DNA from: a virus | Taxonomy: Duplodnaviria; Caudoviricetes | Reading direction: 5' to 3' (one strand) | DNA length: 64,000 nt | IMG/VR virus record: IMGVR_UViG_2513237176_000002 | Part shown: positions 7,933-44,098 of the stretch, in pieces | Layout: the number at the start of each line of letters is the position of its first letter | How positions within the stretch are numbered: position 1 is the first letter of the stretch | Made by a program: the position numbers and the translations under genes | Notes under the pieces: model-generated | What the model saw: only the letters and a program-made list of their open reading frames with translations | Databases searched by the model: none | Told to the model about the DNA's origin: nothing

Positions 7933-8499
7933 GTGACCGACGCTGCCACCGCCTACGGGCCCGCGCCGCGGGTGCGTCCCACGGGTGCGCCGTCGCGCCC
8001 GGCGGACCCCCGCCCGCACCTGCGGGCTGTGCCGAACCCGGACACTCTGCAACCTGAAACTGCAACGGAGGAGAACACCCCCTCCGGACACGTTTCCGCA
8101 GGCCAGATCGTTTCGGATGACGCGAATCCGGGTGCCGGGCCGTTGCAGATTGCAGGCTGGCGGGCCGCTGTAGCCCGCTCCCGCGACTACTGGACGCCGC
8201 CCGCGATTCACACCGACCAGCCGGCCTCGATGGCGGAACTGGCCGCCTACGCCCGCACCGCGCCGTGGACCGCCCAAACCAGCGGGCCGCTGCGCACCGC
8301 CGGCGTCATCTACGGATACGGCGTCGCCGTGCCGTACACGTACACCACCCGCTACCGCGAATGGGTCGCCCAGCGACCCGGCCGCCTCCTGCTCCACCTC
8401 GGCGGCATCAAACTCGCCGCCATGACCGGCCCCGGCATCTGGCTGGTCGACCACCTCATCTACCCGGCCGCGCACCTCGTCGGCCAGATCCTCCTCTAG
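7933..8499 (+). CDS. Transfer-region membrane-associated hypothetical protein
   Basis: AAGGAG RBS before GTG; GC3 bias. Confidence 0.7.
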   Translation: MTDAATAYGPAPRVRPTGAPSRPADPRPHLRAVPNPDTLQPETATEENTPSGHVSAGQIVSDDANPGAGPLQIAGWRAAVARSRDYWTPPAIHTDQPASMAELAAYARTAPWTAQTSGPLRTAGVIYGYGVAVPYTYTTRYREWVAQRPGRLLLHLGGIKLAAMTGPGIWLVDHLIYPAAHLVGQILL

Positions 8500-8515
8500 A
8501 AAGGACCCCTCGATC

Positions 8516-9016
8516 ATGGCCGGACGTAATCTCGTCGCCGAACGCGAAGGCGTACAGAAAGCCCAGCAGATCTCCATCTACATCCTCGGCTGGGCGGCCC
8601 AGGCCCTCGGCATCGTCGCCGGCGCCTACGCCGCGAACGCGTGGCCGGGCGGCGCCATCCGCTGGGTGTTCAACCTGATGCCCGGTGACTGGCTGATCCC
8701 GCTCACCCTGTTCATCGGGTTCATCGTGTGGGCCATCGACATCATCAACGACCTCACCCCGAACCAGGCAGCCGTGACCTTCGGGTTCATGGCCCCGATC
8801 CTCGCCCAGGGCACCGACAGCACCCTCGCCCTGCGGGTCCGGGACTGGTCGGATGCGCTGCAGGCCGGTGTCGGCGGGCAGATCGCCCCGTGGGTCGGCA
8901 ACGTCGGCGCGGGCTGGCTGTCGGTGGCGCTCATGGCAACCGCCGTCATCATCGGCAAGCGGGTCCTGCAGAAGCAGGCGTCCGCTGCTGGCCGCGGTGG
9001 TGGGGGTGGCCGCTGA
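8516..9016 (+). CDS. Multi-TM membrane protein of the transfer region
   Basis: 3-4 hydrophobic segments; AAGGA RBS. Confidence 0.75.
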   Translation: MAGRNLVAEREGVQKAQQISIYILGWAAQALGIVAGAYAANAWPGGAIRWVFNLMPGDWLIPLTLFIGFIVWAIDIINDLTPNQAAVTFGFMAPILAQGTDSTLALRVRDWSDALQAGVGGQIAPWVGNVGAGWLSVALMATAVIIGKRVLQKQASAAGRGGGGGR

Positions 9017-10683
9017 TGTGGCTCGTCTCCGGCCTGGTGTTCCTAGCGAACCCGCTTATCGGCGCGGTGCTGCTGATGTCGGCGGCGATCACCACGAACA
9101 TTCGTGCCACGAAGGTCGACGCCGAGTACGCGAAACGCGGTGAACTGCCCCCGACGGCCCGCCTGGTCGACGCCTGGCTGAACCGGCAGAAAGCCGCCGG
9201 GAAGGCACCGGAATCGGCGAAGGTGCGCCCGTACGGGTCGCTGGCGTACGCCCGGCAGCGGTGGCTGGCGATGTGGGAAGACCTGGGGGAGAAGCACCGC
9301 GAGCAGCGCGCCGCCCACAAGAAGCAGCTTGCGGAGGCGAAGAAGAACGGCACCCCGCCGCCGAGCAAGCCGTCGTTGACGGAACAACTGGGCGGTTGGA
9401 AGTGGTCGATTCCCGGTCTGACCCGCCGGGACGAGCCCGGCAGTCCGCCGCCTTCCGCCGCGAGCGCTGACCCGGAGCCGGCTGTCGCCGACGGGCCGGT
9501 CAGCACCTGCGACGAATGCGGCGTCCAGCTGCCCGACGGTGGCTGGAAACACCCGCCCGGCTCGACCTGCCCGAAAGCCGCAAAACCGTCTGGCTCCTCC
9601 GACAGCAACACTGCCGCTCCGGCCGCGCCGGAGGATCCGCTGCTGCGGTTCCTGTCGGATGCGCAGGAAGCGGCACGCCGCAACCCGATGCCCTTCGACC
9701 GGTGCCCGCGCTGCGGCACGACTGCCACGATCACCCCGTCGGGCTGGTGCGAAAAGTGCACCATGCAGGTCCCGCACGGCATGTGCGAGCACTGCCAGGG
9801 CGTGGTCCGCCTCGACGGCACAGTGTGGCGGCACGGCGCCCACTGGCCGTGCCGGCACACCCGTCCCGCGGCCGGCGACACCATTGCCTGCACCAACTGC
9901 CGCACCCGGATCCCGGTGCACCCGGCGATCGCTGACATGGGGGCGTCAGTGCGATGCCAGCACTGTGGCGCCCAGGTCGCCGCCCGCCCACCCAGGCCCG
10001 CCTCTGCCCTGCAGCGCTGTCCTCGGTGCAGCAAATGCGACGGCCCGACCGTCCCGTCGATGAACCAGCTGCGCGGCGGCTTCTGCCCGCGCTGCGACAC
10101 CACCGATCTGCCGGCCGGCAGTGAACGTCACGGCAAATGCGACCGCTGTGGGCTGCCCGGCCGGCTTGTCGTCGCCCGCAAACGCAGCACGGAACTGCTC
10201 CACGACGCCAACGGGTCAACGATTTGCCCCTACGAGACGCCGCAGCTACGCGAACTGCGCCGCACCGATCCGGGCACGGCCCGCATCTACGACGAGATCG
10301 TCGCCAAGCACCTTCGCAACACCCCGGCCGTCGACACGCAGCAGACGGCCAAGACGCCCGTACCAGCCCGAGAAGAGGGAGCATCCATGCCCGAGCATTC
10401 CGGTGAAGTCACCGGCATCCCGTCCGCCGTCCACTACCTGCAGCAGATGGCCGCCGCGCACCGGCAGCACGCCGACAACGAGGCGATGATCGCCACCCTC
10501 GCGGGTTTCCACGTCGGTGCCACCGACCTGGCGCTGGTGCAGCAGGCCATTGCCGCCAGCAACAACGCGGCGGACCTGTACGCCGACGCCGCCACGACGA
10601 TCGACGACGGTAACGCCGCGGTTCGGCAGGGCTACGCGTCCGCGCCGGACGCCGCCGACAAGCACGCCCAGATGGCGGAGTGA
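9016..10683 (+). CDS. Membrane-anchored multi-zinc-ribbon protein with C-terminal ~98-aa helical domain
   Basis: TGATG overlap; N-terminal TM; about six Cys/His clusters; internal RBS+ATG at 10387. Confidence 0.7.
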   Translation: MWLVSGLVFLANPLIGAVLLMSAAITTNIRATKVDAEYAKRGELPPTARLVDAWLNRQKAAGKAPESAKVRPYGSLAYARQRWLAMWEDLGEKHREQRAAHKKQLAEAKKNGTPPPSKPSLTEQLGGWKWSIPGLTRRDEPGSPPPSAASADPEPAVADGPVSTCDECGVQLPDGGWKHPPGSTCPKAAKPSGSSDSNTAAPAAPEDPLLRFLSDAQEAARRNPMPFDRCPRCGTTATITPSGWCEKCTMQVPHGMCEHCQGVVRLDGTVWRHGAHWPCRHTRPAAGDTIACTNCRTRIPVHPAIADMGASVRCQHCGAQVAARPPRPASALQRCPRCSKCDGPTVPSMNQLRGGFCPRCDTTDLPAGSERHGKCDRCGLPGRLVVARKRSTELLHDANGSTICPYETPQLRELRRTDPGTARIYDEIVAKHLRNTPAVDTQQTAKTPVPAREEGASMPEHSGEVTGIPSAVHYLQQMAAAHRQHADNEAMIATLAGFHVGATDLALVQQAIAASNNAADLYADAATTIDDGNAAVRQGYASAPDAADKHAQMAE

Positions 10684-39306: not shown

Positions 39307-39666
39307 TCAGCACTCCATCCAGGTGACCAGGGCGCCGTCTGCGGCGGTGGTCATGGCGATGCCGATGTTGCCGAGCCCGGCCGCCGCCGAGGCGACGGTG
39401 CCGTTCGCGGCGGCGTTCACCCGCGCGGCGGCGGTGATCGCACCGGACGCGACGGAGATGTGGACCTGGCCGCGGCCGTGGTAGGTGACGTTCGTGCCGG
39501 ATCCGGCGTCGTGGGCGGCGGTGCCGACGACTGCGTTCGAGTCGGCGGCGGCGTGCGCGACGGTGCCGTTCCCGGACACCATCAGCTGCCGGCCGCCGGT
39601 GACGGCTCCTGAGGTGACGCCGGTGATCGCGTCACCGGGCATGTACAGCGGGGCGTAGTCAGCCAT
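39307..39666 (-). CDS. Capsid decoration/cement protein (DUF2190-like)
   Basis: VVGTAAHDA..G..V, ASGAITAA..V, IGIAMTTA. Confidence 0.8.
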   Translation of the reverse strand: MADYAPLYMPGDAITGVTSGAVTGGRQLMVSGNGTVAHAAADSNAVVGTAAHDAGSGTNVTYHGRGQVHISVASGAITAAARVNAAANGTVASAAAGLGNIGIAMTTAADGALVTWMEC

Positions 39667-41543
39667 CAGGCACCTGCCTTCTCGCCGAACAGGCGGGCGT
39701 ACTCGGCGTCGTCGAATGACGCGCCACCGGTCGGTTCCGGGCCGCCGGCCGTGCCGGACGCGGCGACCGGAACAGCGGTGCCGGGGGCGATGGACGCGAG
39801 AACGCGGGTGATCGCGCCGGGCGCCTCGTCGTAGTCGGTTTCCCACTGCGCCTTGTCAGCGGGCTTGATCTTGCCGTCCTTGACCGCAGCGTCGATCACA
39901 CTGGCCTTGACGGTGGCAGCCTGCTCGGCCTTCGCCGAGGCGAGCTCGTCCGACATCGTCTTCACCTGGGACGCCAGAACCTGGACTTCCTTGGCGAGCT
40001 CCGTCTTCTCCTGTTCGGCCTTCTGCGCCTTCTCGGTAGCGGCAGCCGACGCGGCAACCATCTCCGGCGTCGGTTCGGGGGTGATGTTCTCGGCCTCGGT
40101 CAGCCGCGCCGCGTACGCCGTGAGCACGGCATCCTGGTCGGCGTCGTCGGACAGGCCGAGCCGCGAGCGGTGTGCGCTCAGATCGGTGGTGGACACAGGG
40201 TCCTCCTCCTTCGGTTCGGGGTTAACGTGCTCCGGCTCGGCGGCCGGGAGAATGGGCGCCGGATCGTCCGGCGAGGGAGCGGCGGGCTCGGATGCTTTGA
40301 CCTTCTGGTTCGGCGTGTGCCCGAAGTGCTCGCGGTACCAGTCGGAGGCGATCCGTTTCGCTTTGCCGGGGTTCCCGACGTGCTTGGCGATCAGCCGGTA
40401 CAGGGTGGTCCACGGATGCTTCGCGCCCGCCCACCGCTTCAGGCCTTCACCCAGCCAGTACCGCTTCAACTGGTCGTCGTCACCGGCCGCTGCGGCGACG
40501 GGCTCGCTGTCGAGGTCGTCGGGTTCGCTGATCAGCGGGATGTCGACGCGTTCGCCGGCGAACGCCAGCCGCAGCCGGTCGAACCGGACCGGGCCGACCT
40601 TCTCTGCCAGCTTCCCGACCTGGGTCAGGTCGCTGGTGTAGGCGGCTGTCATGTGGGCGTGCCACGGCCGGTGCTGTTCGGGCATCGGCACCGACCACAG
40701 CGCCTCGGACACGAGGGTGTGGACGGCGTCGAGGAGGTCACCGGACAGGCCCCATACGAGGCAGGTGTCCCGGTCGGGTTCCGCATTGCCGGGGTTGAAC
40801 ACGTTGACCGAGAACAGGTCGGCGCCGATGACGGGCAGCCCGTTCGCGGCGGTGGATACCGCGTCGATGACGTCCTGCTGGCCCTGCACACCGAGGTCGG
40901 CGGCCTCACCGAGGTAGGCGAGGGTGACGTGCAAGGCGTCAGCGGGTTCGCCGCCGTTGACGGCGATCCGTTCGGCGTCCTCAGCGGTGGGGATCAGGGC
41001 GACCATCGCGCCCGTGTGCTCGACGGCCTCGGCGGCGAGGATCGTGACCTGCACATGCTCCGCGCCGTCCGGAACCACAGCATCGGCGGCGGCAACACCG
41101 AGCATCGCAGGTAGGTCGTTGAGCCGGCGGATCGTCTTCACCGCGGGCGGGGTGACGCCGAGCAGTGCCACGGCGGTCAGGACGAACTTGTGCTTGTGGC
41201 CGCTTCCGCAGGTGTGGTTGTAGTTGCCCTCGATCGACCGGGACGGGTAGGCGGCGGCCTGCACAGAATGCAGCCACGGCAGGGTCACCTGGTCGCCGAC
41301 GAGGGTGTGGCCGCCGTCGGTGAGGCGAAGGTTCTCGAAGTAGCCCATCGCCGGTTCGCCGTCGAAACGCTTGTCGATGTGGCCGAGCTTGATGACAGGC
41401 TTCTCGACAGCGGGGCAGGACTGTGCTTCGACGGCGGCGGCCAGATCTTCAGGTGTCGGGTTCCACGACCCGGACATGGTGGCCCAGTTGCCGGTCTTGA
41501 CCAGTTCAACGCCTTCACGGCGGGCGAGTTCGATATCAGGCAT
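39666..41543 (-). CDS. Mu gpI-like head maturation protease/scaffold with inserted 2H phosphoesterase
   Basis: IKLGH, EPAMG, YPSRSIE, LTAVALLGVTPPAV protease; HVT/HMT motifs; scaffold IDAAVKDGKI.PA; internal AAGGAGGAGG+GTG at 40196. Confidence 0.85.
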   Translation of the reverse strand: MPDIELARREGVELVKTGNWATMSGSWNPTPEDLAAAVEAQSCPAVEKPVIKLGHIDKRFDGEPAMGYFENLRLTDGGHTLVGDQVTLPWLHSVQAAAYPSRSIEGNYNHTCGSGHKHKFVLTAVALLGVTPPAVKTIRRLNDLPAMLGVAAADAVVPDGAEHVQVTILAAEAVEHTGAMVALIPTAEDAERIAVNGGEPADALHVTLAYLGEAADLGVQGQQDVIDAVSTAANGLPVIGADLFSVNVFNPGNAEPDRDTCLVWGLSGDLLDAVHTLVSEALWSVPMPEQHRPWHAHMTAAYTSDLTQVGKLAEKVGPVRFDRLRLAFAGERVDIPLISEPDDLDSEPVAAAAGDDDQLKRYWLGEGLKRWAGAKHPWTTLYRLIAKHVGNPGKAKRIASDWYREHFGHTPNQKVKASEPAAPSPDDPAPILPAAEPEHVNPEPKEEDPVSTTDLSAHRSRLGLSDDADQDAVLTAYAARLTEAENITPEPTPEMVAASAAATEKAQKAEQEKTELAKEVQVLASQVKTMSDELASAKAEQAATVKASVIDAAVKDGKIKPADKAQWETDYDEAPGAITRVLASIAPGTAVPVAASGTAGGPEPTGGASFDDAEYARLFGEKAGA

Positions 41544-41554
41544 CGCTCACCGCC

Positions 41555-41833
41555 TCAGACCCGTTCCGGCCAGTGCCACGTGCCACCCGGCCAATTGCCG
41601 GGCCCGGCCTCGTTGTTCGCGCCGCCACCCTCGCCGGTGTAGTAGCAGTCCTGGTTGAGGAAAACACCCGTCGGGTTCATCACGAACAGATCGACCGTTG
41701 TGTCGTTCTTGACGGCGGTGATGACCGCCGCGCGGCACTCCGACTTGAACGCCTGGGTCCCATCCGGGCGGACAGGGCTGCCGTGGGAAACGTAGTGCAC
41801 AATGCGGCCGACGCTGGGCTTCTGGAACTCCAC
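41555..41833 (-). CDS. Conserved phage hypothetical protein
   Basis: PSVGRIVHY...RAAVIT...GTWHWPERV; AAAGGAGG RBS. Confidence 0.8.
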   Translation of the reverse strand: MEFQKPSVGRIVHYVSHGSPVRPDGTQAFKSECRAAVITAVKNDTTVDLFVMNPTGVFLNQDCYYTGEGGGANNEAGPGNWPGGTWHWPERV

Positions 41834-41873
41834 ACCGGCCTCCTTTCGGAAGTCGGGTCGTGGTGTACCGGCT

Positions 41874-41955
41874 AAAGTCGGCGTGAAGTGGAAGCACGCC
41901 CGCTGAACCACAGGGCGGGAGGTCCGGTTCGAGTCCGCCTCCGCGTGCGGCTTTC
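41874..41955 (+). ncRNA. tRNA-like cloverleaf (non-canonical or pseudo-tRNA)
   Basis: AAAGTCG/CGGCTTT acceptor, GTG-AAGTGGAAG-CAC D arm, CCCGC/GCGGG stem, GGTTCGAGTCC T loop. Confidence 0.45.
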
Positions 41956-42004: not shown

Positions 42005-44098
42005 TCACCACACGGGTTGCACAAAGCCTCTGCAACGGCCTCGTCCGTCGCAGGCGCGGAACGAACCGCCGCCCGGATAGTCGACAAGCGCATCCCGCAA
42101 GGTCACGTACGACTGCTTGCTCACTTCCCGGCAGGGGCTGCAGGTCGCTCGGTCCAGGGTTTCGTTCGAGCGGTAGGACCGGGCTGGATGTTCTTCAAGG
42201 ACAGCCAGGCGGCCAGCAAACTGGCCGGCCGATAGCAGCGAGCCGATGTTGTCGCCGACCAGCCCATTCACCGACGTACCGAGCTCGGTGAGGTGCCGTT
42301 CAACTTCGTCCCGTACCTCCTGCGGGCCGACGCCGGCGAGCTGCAGCCCGGTTCGGGCGGCTCCGGACGCGTACCCGGCGGCGATGATCCGGGCAACCGC
42401 GTCCGCGTGCTGAACGACGCGGTCCGCGCCGGGCTGGTCCGGTGCGGTGATGTCGGTGCCCTGCGCGGCGGCTTCCGCCACCACCCCTGCGGCGGCGTCC
42501 GCGGCGAGGTCGGTGCCCGACTTGCGCAGCGGCACCGCAAGCGCGGCGACCACACCTGCTGAAACCTGCAGTTGGCCGAGCAGCGCCAGGTCCCCGACGT
42601 CGACAGCCGCACGCGCCTGATCGGCCAGCTCGGCAACCATCGGTGCGGCGAGTTTCGGCCAGCGCCGCAACAGGCGAGCCTTGACCGCATCCCACTGCTG
42701 CTGGATGCGGGCCGCCGCGTCTTCGTCGTCACCGAACAGGGACGGCTGGTTCTGCTTCCGCCGACGCGGCGACCGGGGCCGGGCCGCAGCAGCAACCTTG
42801 CCGACGTCGGATTCCAGCTCAGGATTGTCGTCCTTCGGCAGGTCCACACCCGGCGCCGTGGCCTTCGGTTTCGCCATGCCCTCGCGTTCCGGGAGCCGCC
42901 ACTCGCGGCGGATCCACGCCTCAAGGGCAGGGTCCGCCGCGAGCCCCCCGGAGGCAAGCAGCATCTGCAGCGCTTCGGCCGTGACTTCCCGGCGGGAGCC
43001 GACGCCGGACACCACGATGCGGGGGACGGGTTCGTCTTCGCCCCAATTCCAGTCGACGATCCGCGCGGCGATCTGCCGGGTGGCGACGTCGGCAACGAAC
43101 TCGGCCTCAGCTTCGAGGGCGAGGAGCAGGGCGTCGACGAACACACTGGCGGTGGCGCGGGAGCCGTGCGGGGTTTCGCCGAGCTCGAACGCGTTCATCA
43201 ACGCCGACGCGGCGCACTGCTGATCGAGCCAGCGCAGGAACTCCTGCGTAGGTGGCAGGCTGCCGGTGATCCCGAGGATTTTCATGACGAAGCCGGGCGG
43301 GGTCGCAGCACCGGCGGAGATGCCGGCGCGGGCGGCCTGCGCAACTTCGGCGGCCTCACCCATCTGCGCCTGCGTCGGGTTCGTGCCGGGCAGCGCTTCG
43401 AGGACGGGGACGCCGGCGGACCAGCGGACGTTGGCGACGGCGAACGCCCGCCGAACCTCCTCCTTGATCAGCCACGAAGCATATGAAGGACGAAGGAGGG
43501 ACGTGCCCGCCCAGTTCGAGCCCTCACGCTCACGCGCGTACCAGGCCAGGTTATTCGCCGGCATCTGCGGCGTGTGCAGGTTCGCCAGGCCGTCCTGGGT
43601 GGCGCCGGTCAGCAGGCCGGTTTTCCCGTCGGTGTGGATGTGGGAGATCGTCCACTGCGGGCGCTCCCACAACCCGGCCAGCCGCGCCGTACCGTCCGAC
43701 ACGTCGGCTTCGAGTTCGAACGCGGAGAACCCGAACGGCACCATGCGGAACACCGACCGCAAGTGGTCACCCCACGACACCCCGCGCAAACGGGCAGGAC
43801 CGGGCGTCTCGTCCCGGCCCTTGATAGGCAGGCCGAGGCCGTCAGCGACCGCCGCGACCACCGGGGGGCGGCAGCCCGCCGGGTCCAGCTGCCACTGGGC
43901 GCGCAGCAGGTTCAGAATCCATCCCTGCTGAATGCTGGACAGCTTCGGGTCGCGGCGCATCTTCGAATACACCGGGATGCTCAGCGGGAACGTCAGATCC
44001 GGGACGTGCTCGAGAACGTCCAGGTACAGCGACGCGTAGCTGTCGTTGCCGAGGCGGTACGGGTCGACGTAGCCACGCGTGCTGGTCGGGGCGGTCAC
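42005..44098 (-). CDS. Portal (DUF935/Mu gp29-like) fused to MuF-like domain
   Basis: FGFSAFE, GTSLLRP.Y..W..K, GSRA, NWG; C-terminal CSPC...CDGRGRCRG. Confidence 0.85.
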   Translation of the reverse strand: MTAPTSTRGYVDPYRLGNDSYASLYLDVLEHVPDLTFPLSIPVYSKMRRDPKLSSIQQGWILNLLRAQWQLDPAGCRPPVVAAVADGLGLPIKGRDETPGPARLRGVSWGDHLRSVFRMVPFGFSAFELEADVSDGTARLAGLWERPQWTISHIHTDGKTGLLTGATQDGLANLHTPQMPANNLAWYAREREGSNWAGTSLLRPSYASWLIKEEVRRAFAVANVRWSAGVPVLEALPGTNPTQAQMGEAAEVAQAARAGISAGAATPPGFVMKILGITGSLPPTQEFLRWLDQQCAASALMNAFELGETPHGSRATASVFVDALLLALEAEAEFVADVATRQIAARIVDWNWGEDEPVPRIVVSGVGSRREVTAEALQMLLASGGLAADPALEAWIRREWRLPEREGMAKPKATAPGVDLPKDDNPELESDVGKVAAAARPRSPRRRKQNQPSLFGDDEDAAARIQQQWDAVKARLLRRWPKLAAPMVAELADQARAAVDVGDLALLGQLQVSAGVVAALAVPLRKSGTDLAADAAAGVVAEAAAQGTDITAPDQPGADRVVQHADAVARIIAAGYASGAARTGLQLAGVGPQEVRDEVERHLTELGTSVNGLVGDNIGSLLSAGQFAGRLAVLEEHPARSYRSNETLDRATCSPCREVSKQSYVTLRDALVDYPGGGSFRACDGRGRCRGFVQPVW

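Follow-up and report, generated by a model that had tools for sequence, protein, structure and literature searches.

A LigT-like 2H phosphoesterase domain within a prohead protease-scaffold polyprotein, a candidate virion cargo of actinobacterial phages

The polyprotein gene and its modules

We analysed a 64,000-nucleotide stretch of viral DNA (the window), IMG/VR record IMGVR_UViG_2513237176_000002 (Duplodnaviria; Caudoviricetes), in which one gene of the minus strand encodes a polyprotein that joins a prohead protease, a 2H phosphoesterase domain, a basic Trp-rich domain and a scaffold. A first-pass annotation, made from the sequence, had described this modular gene as a 625-amino-acid (aa) open reading frame (ORF) at 39666–41543, and its coordinates and motifs all proved correct against the ORF list and the translation, including the two putative catalytic motifs, LHVTL (aa 204–208) and AHMTA (aa 296–300). 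The gene and its domains are laid out as follows:

39666..41543, minus strand: gene of the protease, 2H, Trp-rich and scaffold polyprotein (625 aa, stop included; ORF list and translation)
41154..41543, minus strand: N-terminal prohead protease domain, aa 1–130 (phrog_3894, head maturation protease, E 2.6e-72)
40524..41018, minus strand: 2H phosphoesterase domain, aa 176–340 (AlphaFold model, Foldseek, VIA-align and 1703 representative homologues)
40923..40931, minus strand: first catalytic H-x-T motif, H205-V-T207 (aligned with LHLTL of LigT)
40647..40655, minus strand: second catalytic H-x-T motif, H297-M-T299 (aligned with PHITL of LigT)
40305..40496, minus strand: basic Trp-rich helical domain, aa 350–413 (phrog_6439, E 1e-10)
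39666..40196, minus strand: scaffold domain and nested scaffold ORF, aa 450–625 (coiled coil at aa 493–555; Pfam Mu-like_Pro)

Comparison of the 625-aa protein with the PHROGs families identified a head maturation protease at aa 4–170 (E 2.6e-72), a 2H 'RNA ligase' family at aa 156–338 (E 2e-31), phrog_6439 over the Trp-rich part at aa 351–417, and head protease/scaffold families at aa 432–608. With Pfam, the 2_5_RNA_ligase2 profile (PF13563) matched aa 201–316 at E 7e-6 with 26.5 bits, half a bit below its cut-off of 27, and the Mu-like_Pro profile (PF10123) passed its cut-off (E 2e-9, 37.8 bits against 25.2) at aa 442–611 only, which correspond to profile positions 146–311, the scaffold half; Pfam recognized neither the N-terminal protease nor the Trp-rich domain. 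A whole-protein AlphaFold model, built from 35 collinear homologues, shows four folded modules arranged like beads on a string, with disordered linkers at aa 130–175, 341–349 and 414–452. The N-terminal module (aa 1–129) is beta-rich, and the scaffold is helical, with a 60-residue coiled coil, a disordered segment at aa 591–610 and a helix at its end; in BFVD, the scaffold domain matches scaffolding proteins and 'prohead scaffold and peptidase' proteins. The best matches of the whole-protein model outside the 2H region are to protease folds, at middling Z scores: varicella-zoster virus assemblin (1vzv; Z 7.1, root-mean-square deviation (rmsd) 3.1 Å, 110 residues aligned) and T4 gp21 (5jbl; Z 6.7, 4.3 Å, 111 residues). 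Residues H55, D57, S103, H116 and H118 of the protease domain are invariant in the 35-sequence alignment. Solved structures searched with the complete 625-aa sequence yielded no useful match, and a search with the whole-protein profile A2 was no more informative.

Protease-scaffold genes with a nested scaffold are familiar from phage Mu (gpI/gpZ) and lambda (C/Nu3). The polyprotein gene resembles them in its predicted N-terminal protease, its C-terminal scaffold and a candidate internal start, conserved and in frame, with a strong Shine-Dalgarno (SD) sequence, but differs in having about 300 additional residues, the 2H and Trp-rich domains, between protease and scaffold. The N-terminal half, moreover, has no match to the Mu-like_Pro model. 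The earlier description of this part as a Mu gpI-like protease is to be corrected on this point, as the half of the Pfam model that represents Mu gpI does not detect it.

The fold, relatives and carriers of the 2H domain

Modelled alone with AlphaFold, the 2H domain has the bilobed alpha+beta fold of the superfamily and reached a predicted local distance difference test (pLDDT) score of 91. Both motifs, L-H205-V-T207-L and A-H297-M-T299-A, have the form of an H-x-T that lies on a beta strand and is flanked by hydrophobic residues, and H205, T207 and H297 show no variation in any of three independent alignments, each of 33–58 sequences from diverse fusion contexts, with T299 present in at least 90% of sequences. 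Within the middle region of the polyprotein homologues, the 2H domain is the best-conserved stretch. Since the fold is intact in the model and these three residues are invariant, the 2H domain is considered real and the enzyme presumably active.

The first-pass annotation had called the fold Acb1-like and had proposed a comparison of a predicted model with Acb1 and LigT. A genuine 2H fold with intact catalytic residues was indeed recovered, but the nearest relatives are different ones. Foldseek placed Escherichia coli LigT first among solved structures (5ldm, E 7e-8), together with archaeal and Thermus LigT-like proteins, and Acb1 at E 5e-5. VIA-align gave 69 chains at Z ≥8, with the highest scores for the LigT/ThpR enzymes and cyclic phosphodiesterases (CPDases): drCPDase of Deinococcus (5h7e; Z 15.2, rmsd 3.5 Å, 156 residues aligned), TT0787 (Z 15.1) and LigT (5ldi; Z 14.4, 3.0 Å, 150 residues), followed by Usb1 (Z 13.6), the rotavirus VP3 phosphodiesterase (12.9), the phage enzyme PDE-9 (11.2–11.9) and Acb1 (10.9). 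Thus, the best structural matches (5ldm, 5h7e, 1iuh, 1vdx) lie at Z 14–15 and about 3 Å over 150–156 residues, and sequence identity to LigT/CPDase structures in the structural alignments is 15–18%. Consistently, the 2H family profile found LigT among the PDB sequences, in an alignment that pairs the two HxT motifs and their flanking residues, whereas Acb1 chains were absent at E values up to 10; the Pfam Acb1 family (PF23474) did not match the polyprotein at E values up to 1. The established LigT/ThpR models scored below their thresholds as well, with 22 bits against a cut-off of 65.7 for the ThpR equivalog TIGR02258 and 14.1 bits against 23.3 for PF02834; some homologues pass the PF13563 cut-off, such as P0024 with 33.7 bits. 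The 2H domain forms a phage clade of its own, nearest to LigT/CPDase and outside the Acb1 family. Acb1 of T4 and FBB1 (7t26) and PDE-9 (9q2y) are phage-encoded enzymes of the same superfamily with the same catalytic chemistry; Acb1, however, is small and free-standing, and it ranked below the LigT, Usb1 and VP3 folds. LigT/ThpR enzymes and CPDases are likewise free-standing, whereas the domain described here is embedded in a polyprotein with a predicted virion role. Homologues carry the names '2'-5' RNA ligase family protein' or 'phage protease' at NCBI.

An A-A-E or A-A-A-E-V string ahead of the 2H core was considered as a cleavage site and set aside, being conserved in front of the 2H clade in unrelated fusion contexts. 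For the same reason it may more likely be part of the domain, for example an N-terminal lid like that of the phage 2H enzyme PDE-9 (Doherty et al. 2025, preprint of PMC12730640).

The kinship with LigT invites a reading as an RNA-end healing enzyme of the LigT/ThpR type, which would begin the repair of tRNA or mRNA broken by host anticodon nucleases, or by other RNases that need no metal, by opening the 2',3'-cyclic phosphates at the cut ends. Both the nearest solved structures and the sequence profiles point to LigT/ThpR and CPDases, and first-strand motifs such as LHxTLxYLGE match LigT. Nevertheless, we consider this role rather unlikely. No RNA ligase or RtcB gene was found in or near the prophage, the sole matches in the genome lying megabases away, which weakens a self-contained role in RNA repair, in line with the report that polyvalent-type 2H domains are never associated with RNA ligases (Iyer et al. 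2017, PMC5512222). In addition, the ThpR equivalog score falls far short of its cut-off, and a cyclic phosphate opened to a 2'-phosphate is not in itself a ligatable end. The Usb1 match, strong in structural terms, is compatible with an offensive Usb1-type RNase delivered with the DNA, which would trim or cleave host RNAs at takeover. Such an enzyme would parallel the fusions of PBECR RNases to MuF, an option raised for 2H fusions by Iyer et al. (2017, PMC5512222), and would suit the co-occurrence of the domain with toxin-like ADP-ribosyltransferase (ART) and Zeta domains. With only 10–11% identity, however, there is no specific similarity to Usb1, and a temperate phage would inject a toxic RNase at each infection, even those ending in lysogeny; we regard this explanation as improbable.

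More than 100 full-length homologues of the polyprotein were found in Micromonosporaceae genomes and metagenomes; they share the order protease, 2H, optional Trp-rich domain and scaffold, with further inserts of 0–450 aa before or after the 2H domain, and seven homologues lack 2H. Protease-scaffold relatives in Rhodococcus, Gordonia, Streptosporangium, Actinomadura and other genera carry no 2H domain. A tree of the protease domain split these proteins into two clades with 99% support in the Shimodaira-Hasegawa-like approximate likelihood ratio test (SH-aLRT). The first clade, of Micromonosporaceae phages, has the 2H domain in 109 of 116 members, and the seven without it are nested within the clade, so they represent losses; the second (n=19) comprises 16 sampled relatives from other actinobacterial families without the domain and three proteins, obtained through the protein search, that have it. 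These losses, and the tolerance of the protease-scaffold gap for inserts of 0–450 aa, would also be expected if the region were a decayed or purely structural spacer with no enzymatic role. This possibility seems very remote, given that both catalytic His residues and the first Thr are invariant across diverse fusion contexts and that the 2H domain is better conserved than the rest of the middle region.

Searched alone, the 2H domain yielded 1703 representative homologues, mostly within long proteins. In a sample of 58 proteins of the same 2H clade, the domain is fused to MuF (11), ART (9), a ClpP-type prohead protease (5) or a Mu-like_Pro protease-scaffold (5), and it also occurs with Zeta toxin (2), Nudix (1) and GNAT domains. 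The cultured phages Abt2graduatex2 (Streptomyces) and EMoore (Gordonia) encode members of the clade in large proteins between portal and capsid. In two polyprotein homologues, protease and 2H domain are separated by an Alt/VIP2-type ADP-ribosyltransferase (P0030, aa 277–396; P0035, aa 249–374). Apart from these two, the extra inserts of longer homologues (100–450 aa) were not recognized by Pfam. Six homologues (P0011, P0013, P0032, P0044, P0056 and P0097) have extra modules of 380–450 aa before or after the 2H domain, and these modules, for which no Pfam family matched at E values up to 0.01, are probably further cargo enzymes. Six short proteins (P0153, P0174, P0180, P0199, P0207 and P0245) combine a 2H domain of this clade with a C-terminal ART-like R...STS...E domain.

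The recurrent fusion of the 2H domain to several head-internal carriers is the main comparative argument for packaging, and published proteomics of Gordonia phage GMA2 provide indirect experimental support. Mass spectrometry of purified GMA2 virions identified Orf10, an 883-aa protein annotated only as 'putative structural protein', at 29.4% coverage (Dyson et al. 2015, PMC4524720 Table S5). Its gene, at 7981–10632 of that phage, encodes a C-terminal 2H domain that aligned with our family profile in hhalign with 98.7% probability (E 3e-16, 29% identity) and shares the family-specific motifs. When the published peptides were mapped, one of them, at aa 825–846, was found to span the second HxT motif; the virions of at least one cultured actinophage therefore contain a member of this clade, borne by another kind of protein. 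Orf10 is likewise a head-module protein, but its 2H domain is C-terminal, and its first 740 residues have no Pfam match, and hence none to a protease or scaffold family there. The Orf10 2H domain also gave sub-threshold matches to Pfam Acb1 (E 8e-4) and 2_5_RNA_ligase2. The comparative evidence, together with the GMA2 virions that contain a domain of this clade, favours the loading of the enzyme into the head that the first-pass annotation had postulated, and the 2H enzyme of the polyprotein is probably packed into virions.

Linker islands, the nested start and the head module

The disordered linkers of the polyprotein are variable in sequence and are interrupted by short conserved islands. 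These islands, and the internal start of the scaffold, are located as follows:

41085..41096, minus strand: G-V-A-A-[A/S] island after the protease, aa 150–153, candidate cleavage site
40488..40499, minus strand: V-A-A-A island after the 2H domain, aa 349–352, candidate cleavage site
40233..40247, minus strand: P-A-A-E-P island before the scaffold, aa 433–437, invariant in 35/35 sequences
40194..40211, minus strand: predicted GTG start of the nested scaffold, in frame with the polyprotein, and its Shine-Dalgarno site (AAGGAGGAGGA)

After the protease, G149 is invariant and V150 is kept in at least 90% of sequences, and the island, which lies in a disordered linker, holds the same position in the long variants. 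After the 2H domain, V349 is kept in at least 90% and A351 is invariant, within a disordered linker that is otherwise variable. Further islands comprise a V-x-A-[A/S] after the Trp-rich domain, a V-A-A-S at the start of the scaffold helix and a V-P-V-x-A-S near the C-terminus, and in longer homologues the same V-A-A-[A/S] motif bounds the extra modules. The V-A-A-[A/S] islands are therefore candidate recognition sites of the protease. Alanine-rich proteins of high-GC genomes easily yield VAA-like strings by chance, and so it is the conservation of the islands that has to carry this reading. The portal-MuF linker of the prophage and of seven relatives holds an x-V-A-A-A-A motif at the same relative place, and this shared motif suggests that the portal fusion may be cut by the same protease as the polyprotein. 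The portal in question (697 aa, 42005–44098, minus strand) has a long C-terminal extension with a Cys-rich end that looks MuF-like by eye, and phrog_113 covers its aa 31–500 only; its linker motif, K-V-A-A-A-A at aa 439–442, has counterparts at the matching place in seven related prophages.

A nested scaffold gene with its own ribosome-binding site and a GTG start at 40196 had been proposed from the sequence, and comparative data agree with it. The sequence AAGGAGGAGGA precedes the GTG, a much stronger SD than the weak GAGG upstream of the full-length ATG. Start codon and SD are both kept in 10 related loci, two of them from another family: an in-frame GTG, ATG or TTG lies 6–9 codons upstream of RSRLGL (or RQALGL), with an SD-like purine run 7–11 bases upstream of the start that reads AGGAGG or AAGGAGG in 7 of the 10. 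At the protein level, the start falls in an acidic, variable linker in which E447 is conserved in 35/35 sequences, D448 in 34/35 and V450 in 33/35 (the other two having L and M), with residue 449 variable; this E-E-D-x-V pattern of columns is consistent with selection acting on the DNA sequence GGAGGA-N-GTG. Given the conserved internal start with a strong SD and the weak SD of the full-length gene, free scaffold probably outnumbers the full-length product, so that protease and cargo would be found on a minor share of the chains.

The basic Trp-rich domain that the first-pass annotation had placed after the 2H domain is likewise borne out, with an isoelectric point of 9.9, four Trp residues and the phrog_6439 match. 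It is helical, with block-mean pLDDT values of about 83–88 over most of its length, and occurs in about half of the polyprotein homologues. A protein atlas gave neither a known fold nor a function for it, returning only a weak helix-turn-helix-like similarity (template modelling score about 0.4) and a co-occurrence with viral 'putative RNA ligase' proteins; the domain might bind nucleic acid. In P0021, P0037, P0043, P0064 and P0069 it is replaced by a Cys-containing version (LREYWVHGKGAAKIRWGEKNDFYRCV...). Both forms are phage-specific and tend to come after a 2H domain.

The polyprotein gene sits in the canonical head module of a large prophage, in which the order of genes is small-terminase-like, large terminase, portal with a MuF-like C-terminus, a 118-aa ORF, the polyprotein, a decoration-like gene, the major head protein and a connector. 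The 118-aa ORF (41555–41911, minus strand; phrog_2293) lies between portal and protease and ends 11 bases before the protease ATG. At the other end, the polyprotein stop overlaps the ATG of the next gene (TGATG; 39660–39668, minus strand), the decoration-like gene, which matches phrog_673 and is labelled as scaffolding. The overlap suggests translational coupling of the two genes.

A packaged phosphoesterase in phage-host conflict

Fusions of 2H domains to MuF or portal proteins were previously predicted to be packaged and injected, acting either in the degradation of immune nucleotides or as RNases (Iyer et al. 2017, PMC5512222; Iyer et al. 2022, PMC9503650), and proteases have been listed among the domains fused to phage 2H enzymes (Doherty et al. 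2025, preprint of PMC12730640). The idea of a packaged 2H enzyme is thus already published for MuF and portal fusions, and the literature on a protease-2H-scaffold architecture or a virion-packaged Acb1 yielded general predictions and the passing mention of protease fusions only. The polyprotein shares with the polyvalent and MuF-type effectors the same 2H clade, a location among the late head genes and the same proposed logic of packaging and injection: its putative effector is covalently part of a head-interior protein, and the same domain recurs on other head carriers beside effector domains. The papers by Iyer et al. describe MuF and portal carriers for 2H domains and a peptidase fusion for Nudix only; here, by contrast, prohead protease and scaffold sandwich the cargo, the scaffold gene is nested and V-A-A-[A/S] islands flank the modules. 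According to the summary in PMC5512222, T4 Alt and the internal proteins are loaded via the scaffold core, cut by gp21, kept in the head and injected. The T4 cargo, as summarised there, is encoded by separate genes and directed by a short targeting peptide, whereas here protease, cargo and scaffold are made as one covalent chain; homologues of the polyprotein carry an Alt-type ADP-ribosyltransferase, as in T4 Alt, at the same site.

We favour, with confidence somewhat above even, the explanation that this head-assembly polyprotein carries an active LigT-like 2H enzyme as cargo, which is loaded into the head, cut free, injected and directed at a defence-linked phosphodiester. Through its C-terminal scaffold, the polyprotein would co-assemble with the scaffold translated from the internal start, which would greatly outnumber it, and a few tens of complete chains would thereby enter the procapsid. 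The N-terminal protease would then cut the disordered linkers at the V-A-A-[A/S] islands and set free the 2H enzyme (about 20 kDa) and the basic domain (about 7 kDa); the folded 2H domain, trapped in the shell, would stay with the DNA and enter the next host at ejection. There, it may hydrolyse a defence-linked phosphodiester or a 2',3'-cyclic phosphate, the most likely substrate being a nucleotide second messenger and, failing that, cleaved RNA ends. Cleavage, retention in the head, ejection, the substrate and the benefit to the phage are steps that we infer.

Several observations weigh against this explanation. For the polyprotein and its close relatives, cleavage, packaging and activity are predictions. 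The carrier in GMA2 differs in architecture from the polyprotein, and its 2H domain is only 29% identical. The seven nested homologues have lost the 2H domain, which is thus dispensable for assembly. The domain is closer to housekeeping LigT/CPDase enzymes than to Acb1, the fold of phage 2H enzymes does not reveal their substrate range, and two structural groups of them were inactive on the 18 messengers tested (Doherty et al. 2025, preprint of PMC12730640), so that a messenger substrate is not to be assumed. Moreover, no CD-NTase (SMODS) was found in the lysogen's own genome.

Another explanation places the activity of the 2H enzyme late, in the producing cell, where it would degrade nucleotide signals raised when host sensors detect head assembly, the fusion placing and timing the enzyme with the trigger. 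The protease-scaffold fusion of T1-like phages governs the activation of the Type I cyclic oligonucleotide-based antiphage signalling system (CBASS), and its scaffold domain alone induces CBASS-dependent toxicity (Richmond-Buccola et al., 10.1101/2023.05.21.541620), a result that makes a late role in cis a live alternative. Expression together with the late head genes would suit it, as would the CD-NTase genes that 19 of the 121 genomes sampled from the host family carry (a count that includes one unpublished genome, G065). On the other hand, the weak full-length SD implies a low copy number for a cytoplasmic enzyme, the same 2H clade also occurs on MuF, which is no known CBASS trigger, and GMA2 virions do contain a domain of this clade. 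We hold this role to be unlikely, and late and injected roles can coexist. More speculative, and in our judgement quite unlikely, is a combined proposal in which the 2H enzyme, held in cis within the protease-scaffold that serves as the CBASS cue, destroys the signal at the site of assembly, and the region bounded by V-A-A-[A/S] forms an exchangeable cargo cassette that may hold a 2H enzyme, an ADP-ribosyltransferase or modules of 400 aa.

Relative to the published predictions, what is new here is the sandwich position of the 2H domain, the nested start kept among relatives, the linker motif that recurs in portal-MuF, the gain and loss on the protease tree and the link to virion proteomics. 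Cultured relatives, namely the Gordonia phages GMA2 and EMoore and the Streptomyces phage Abt2graduatex2, make the packaged-enzyme explanation testable. It would connect two observations, that head-assembly proteins trigger CBASS and that 2H enzymes destroy CBASS signals. The protease-scaffold sandwich, in which the nested start sets the stoichiometry and short linker motifs bound the cargo, would offer a natural way of loading capsids with defined enzymes. If the 2H enzyme is loaded, released and delivered as proposed, it would be the first 2H enzyme shown to work in this way, and these phages would have a counter-defence ready at DNA entry, before any phage gene is expressed.

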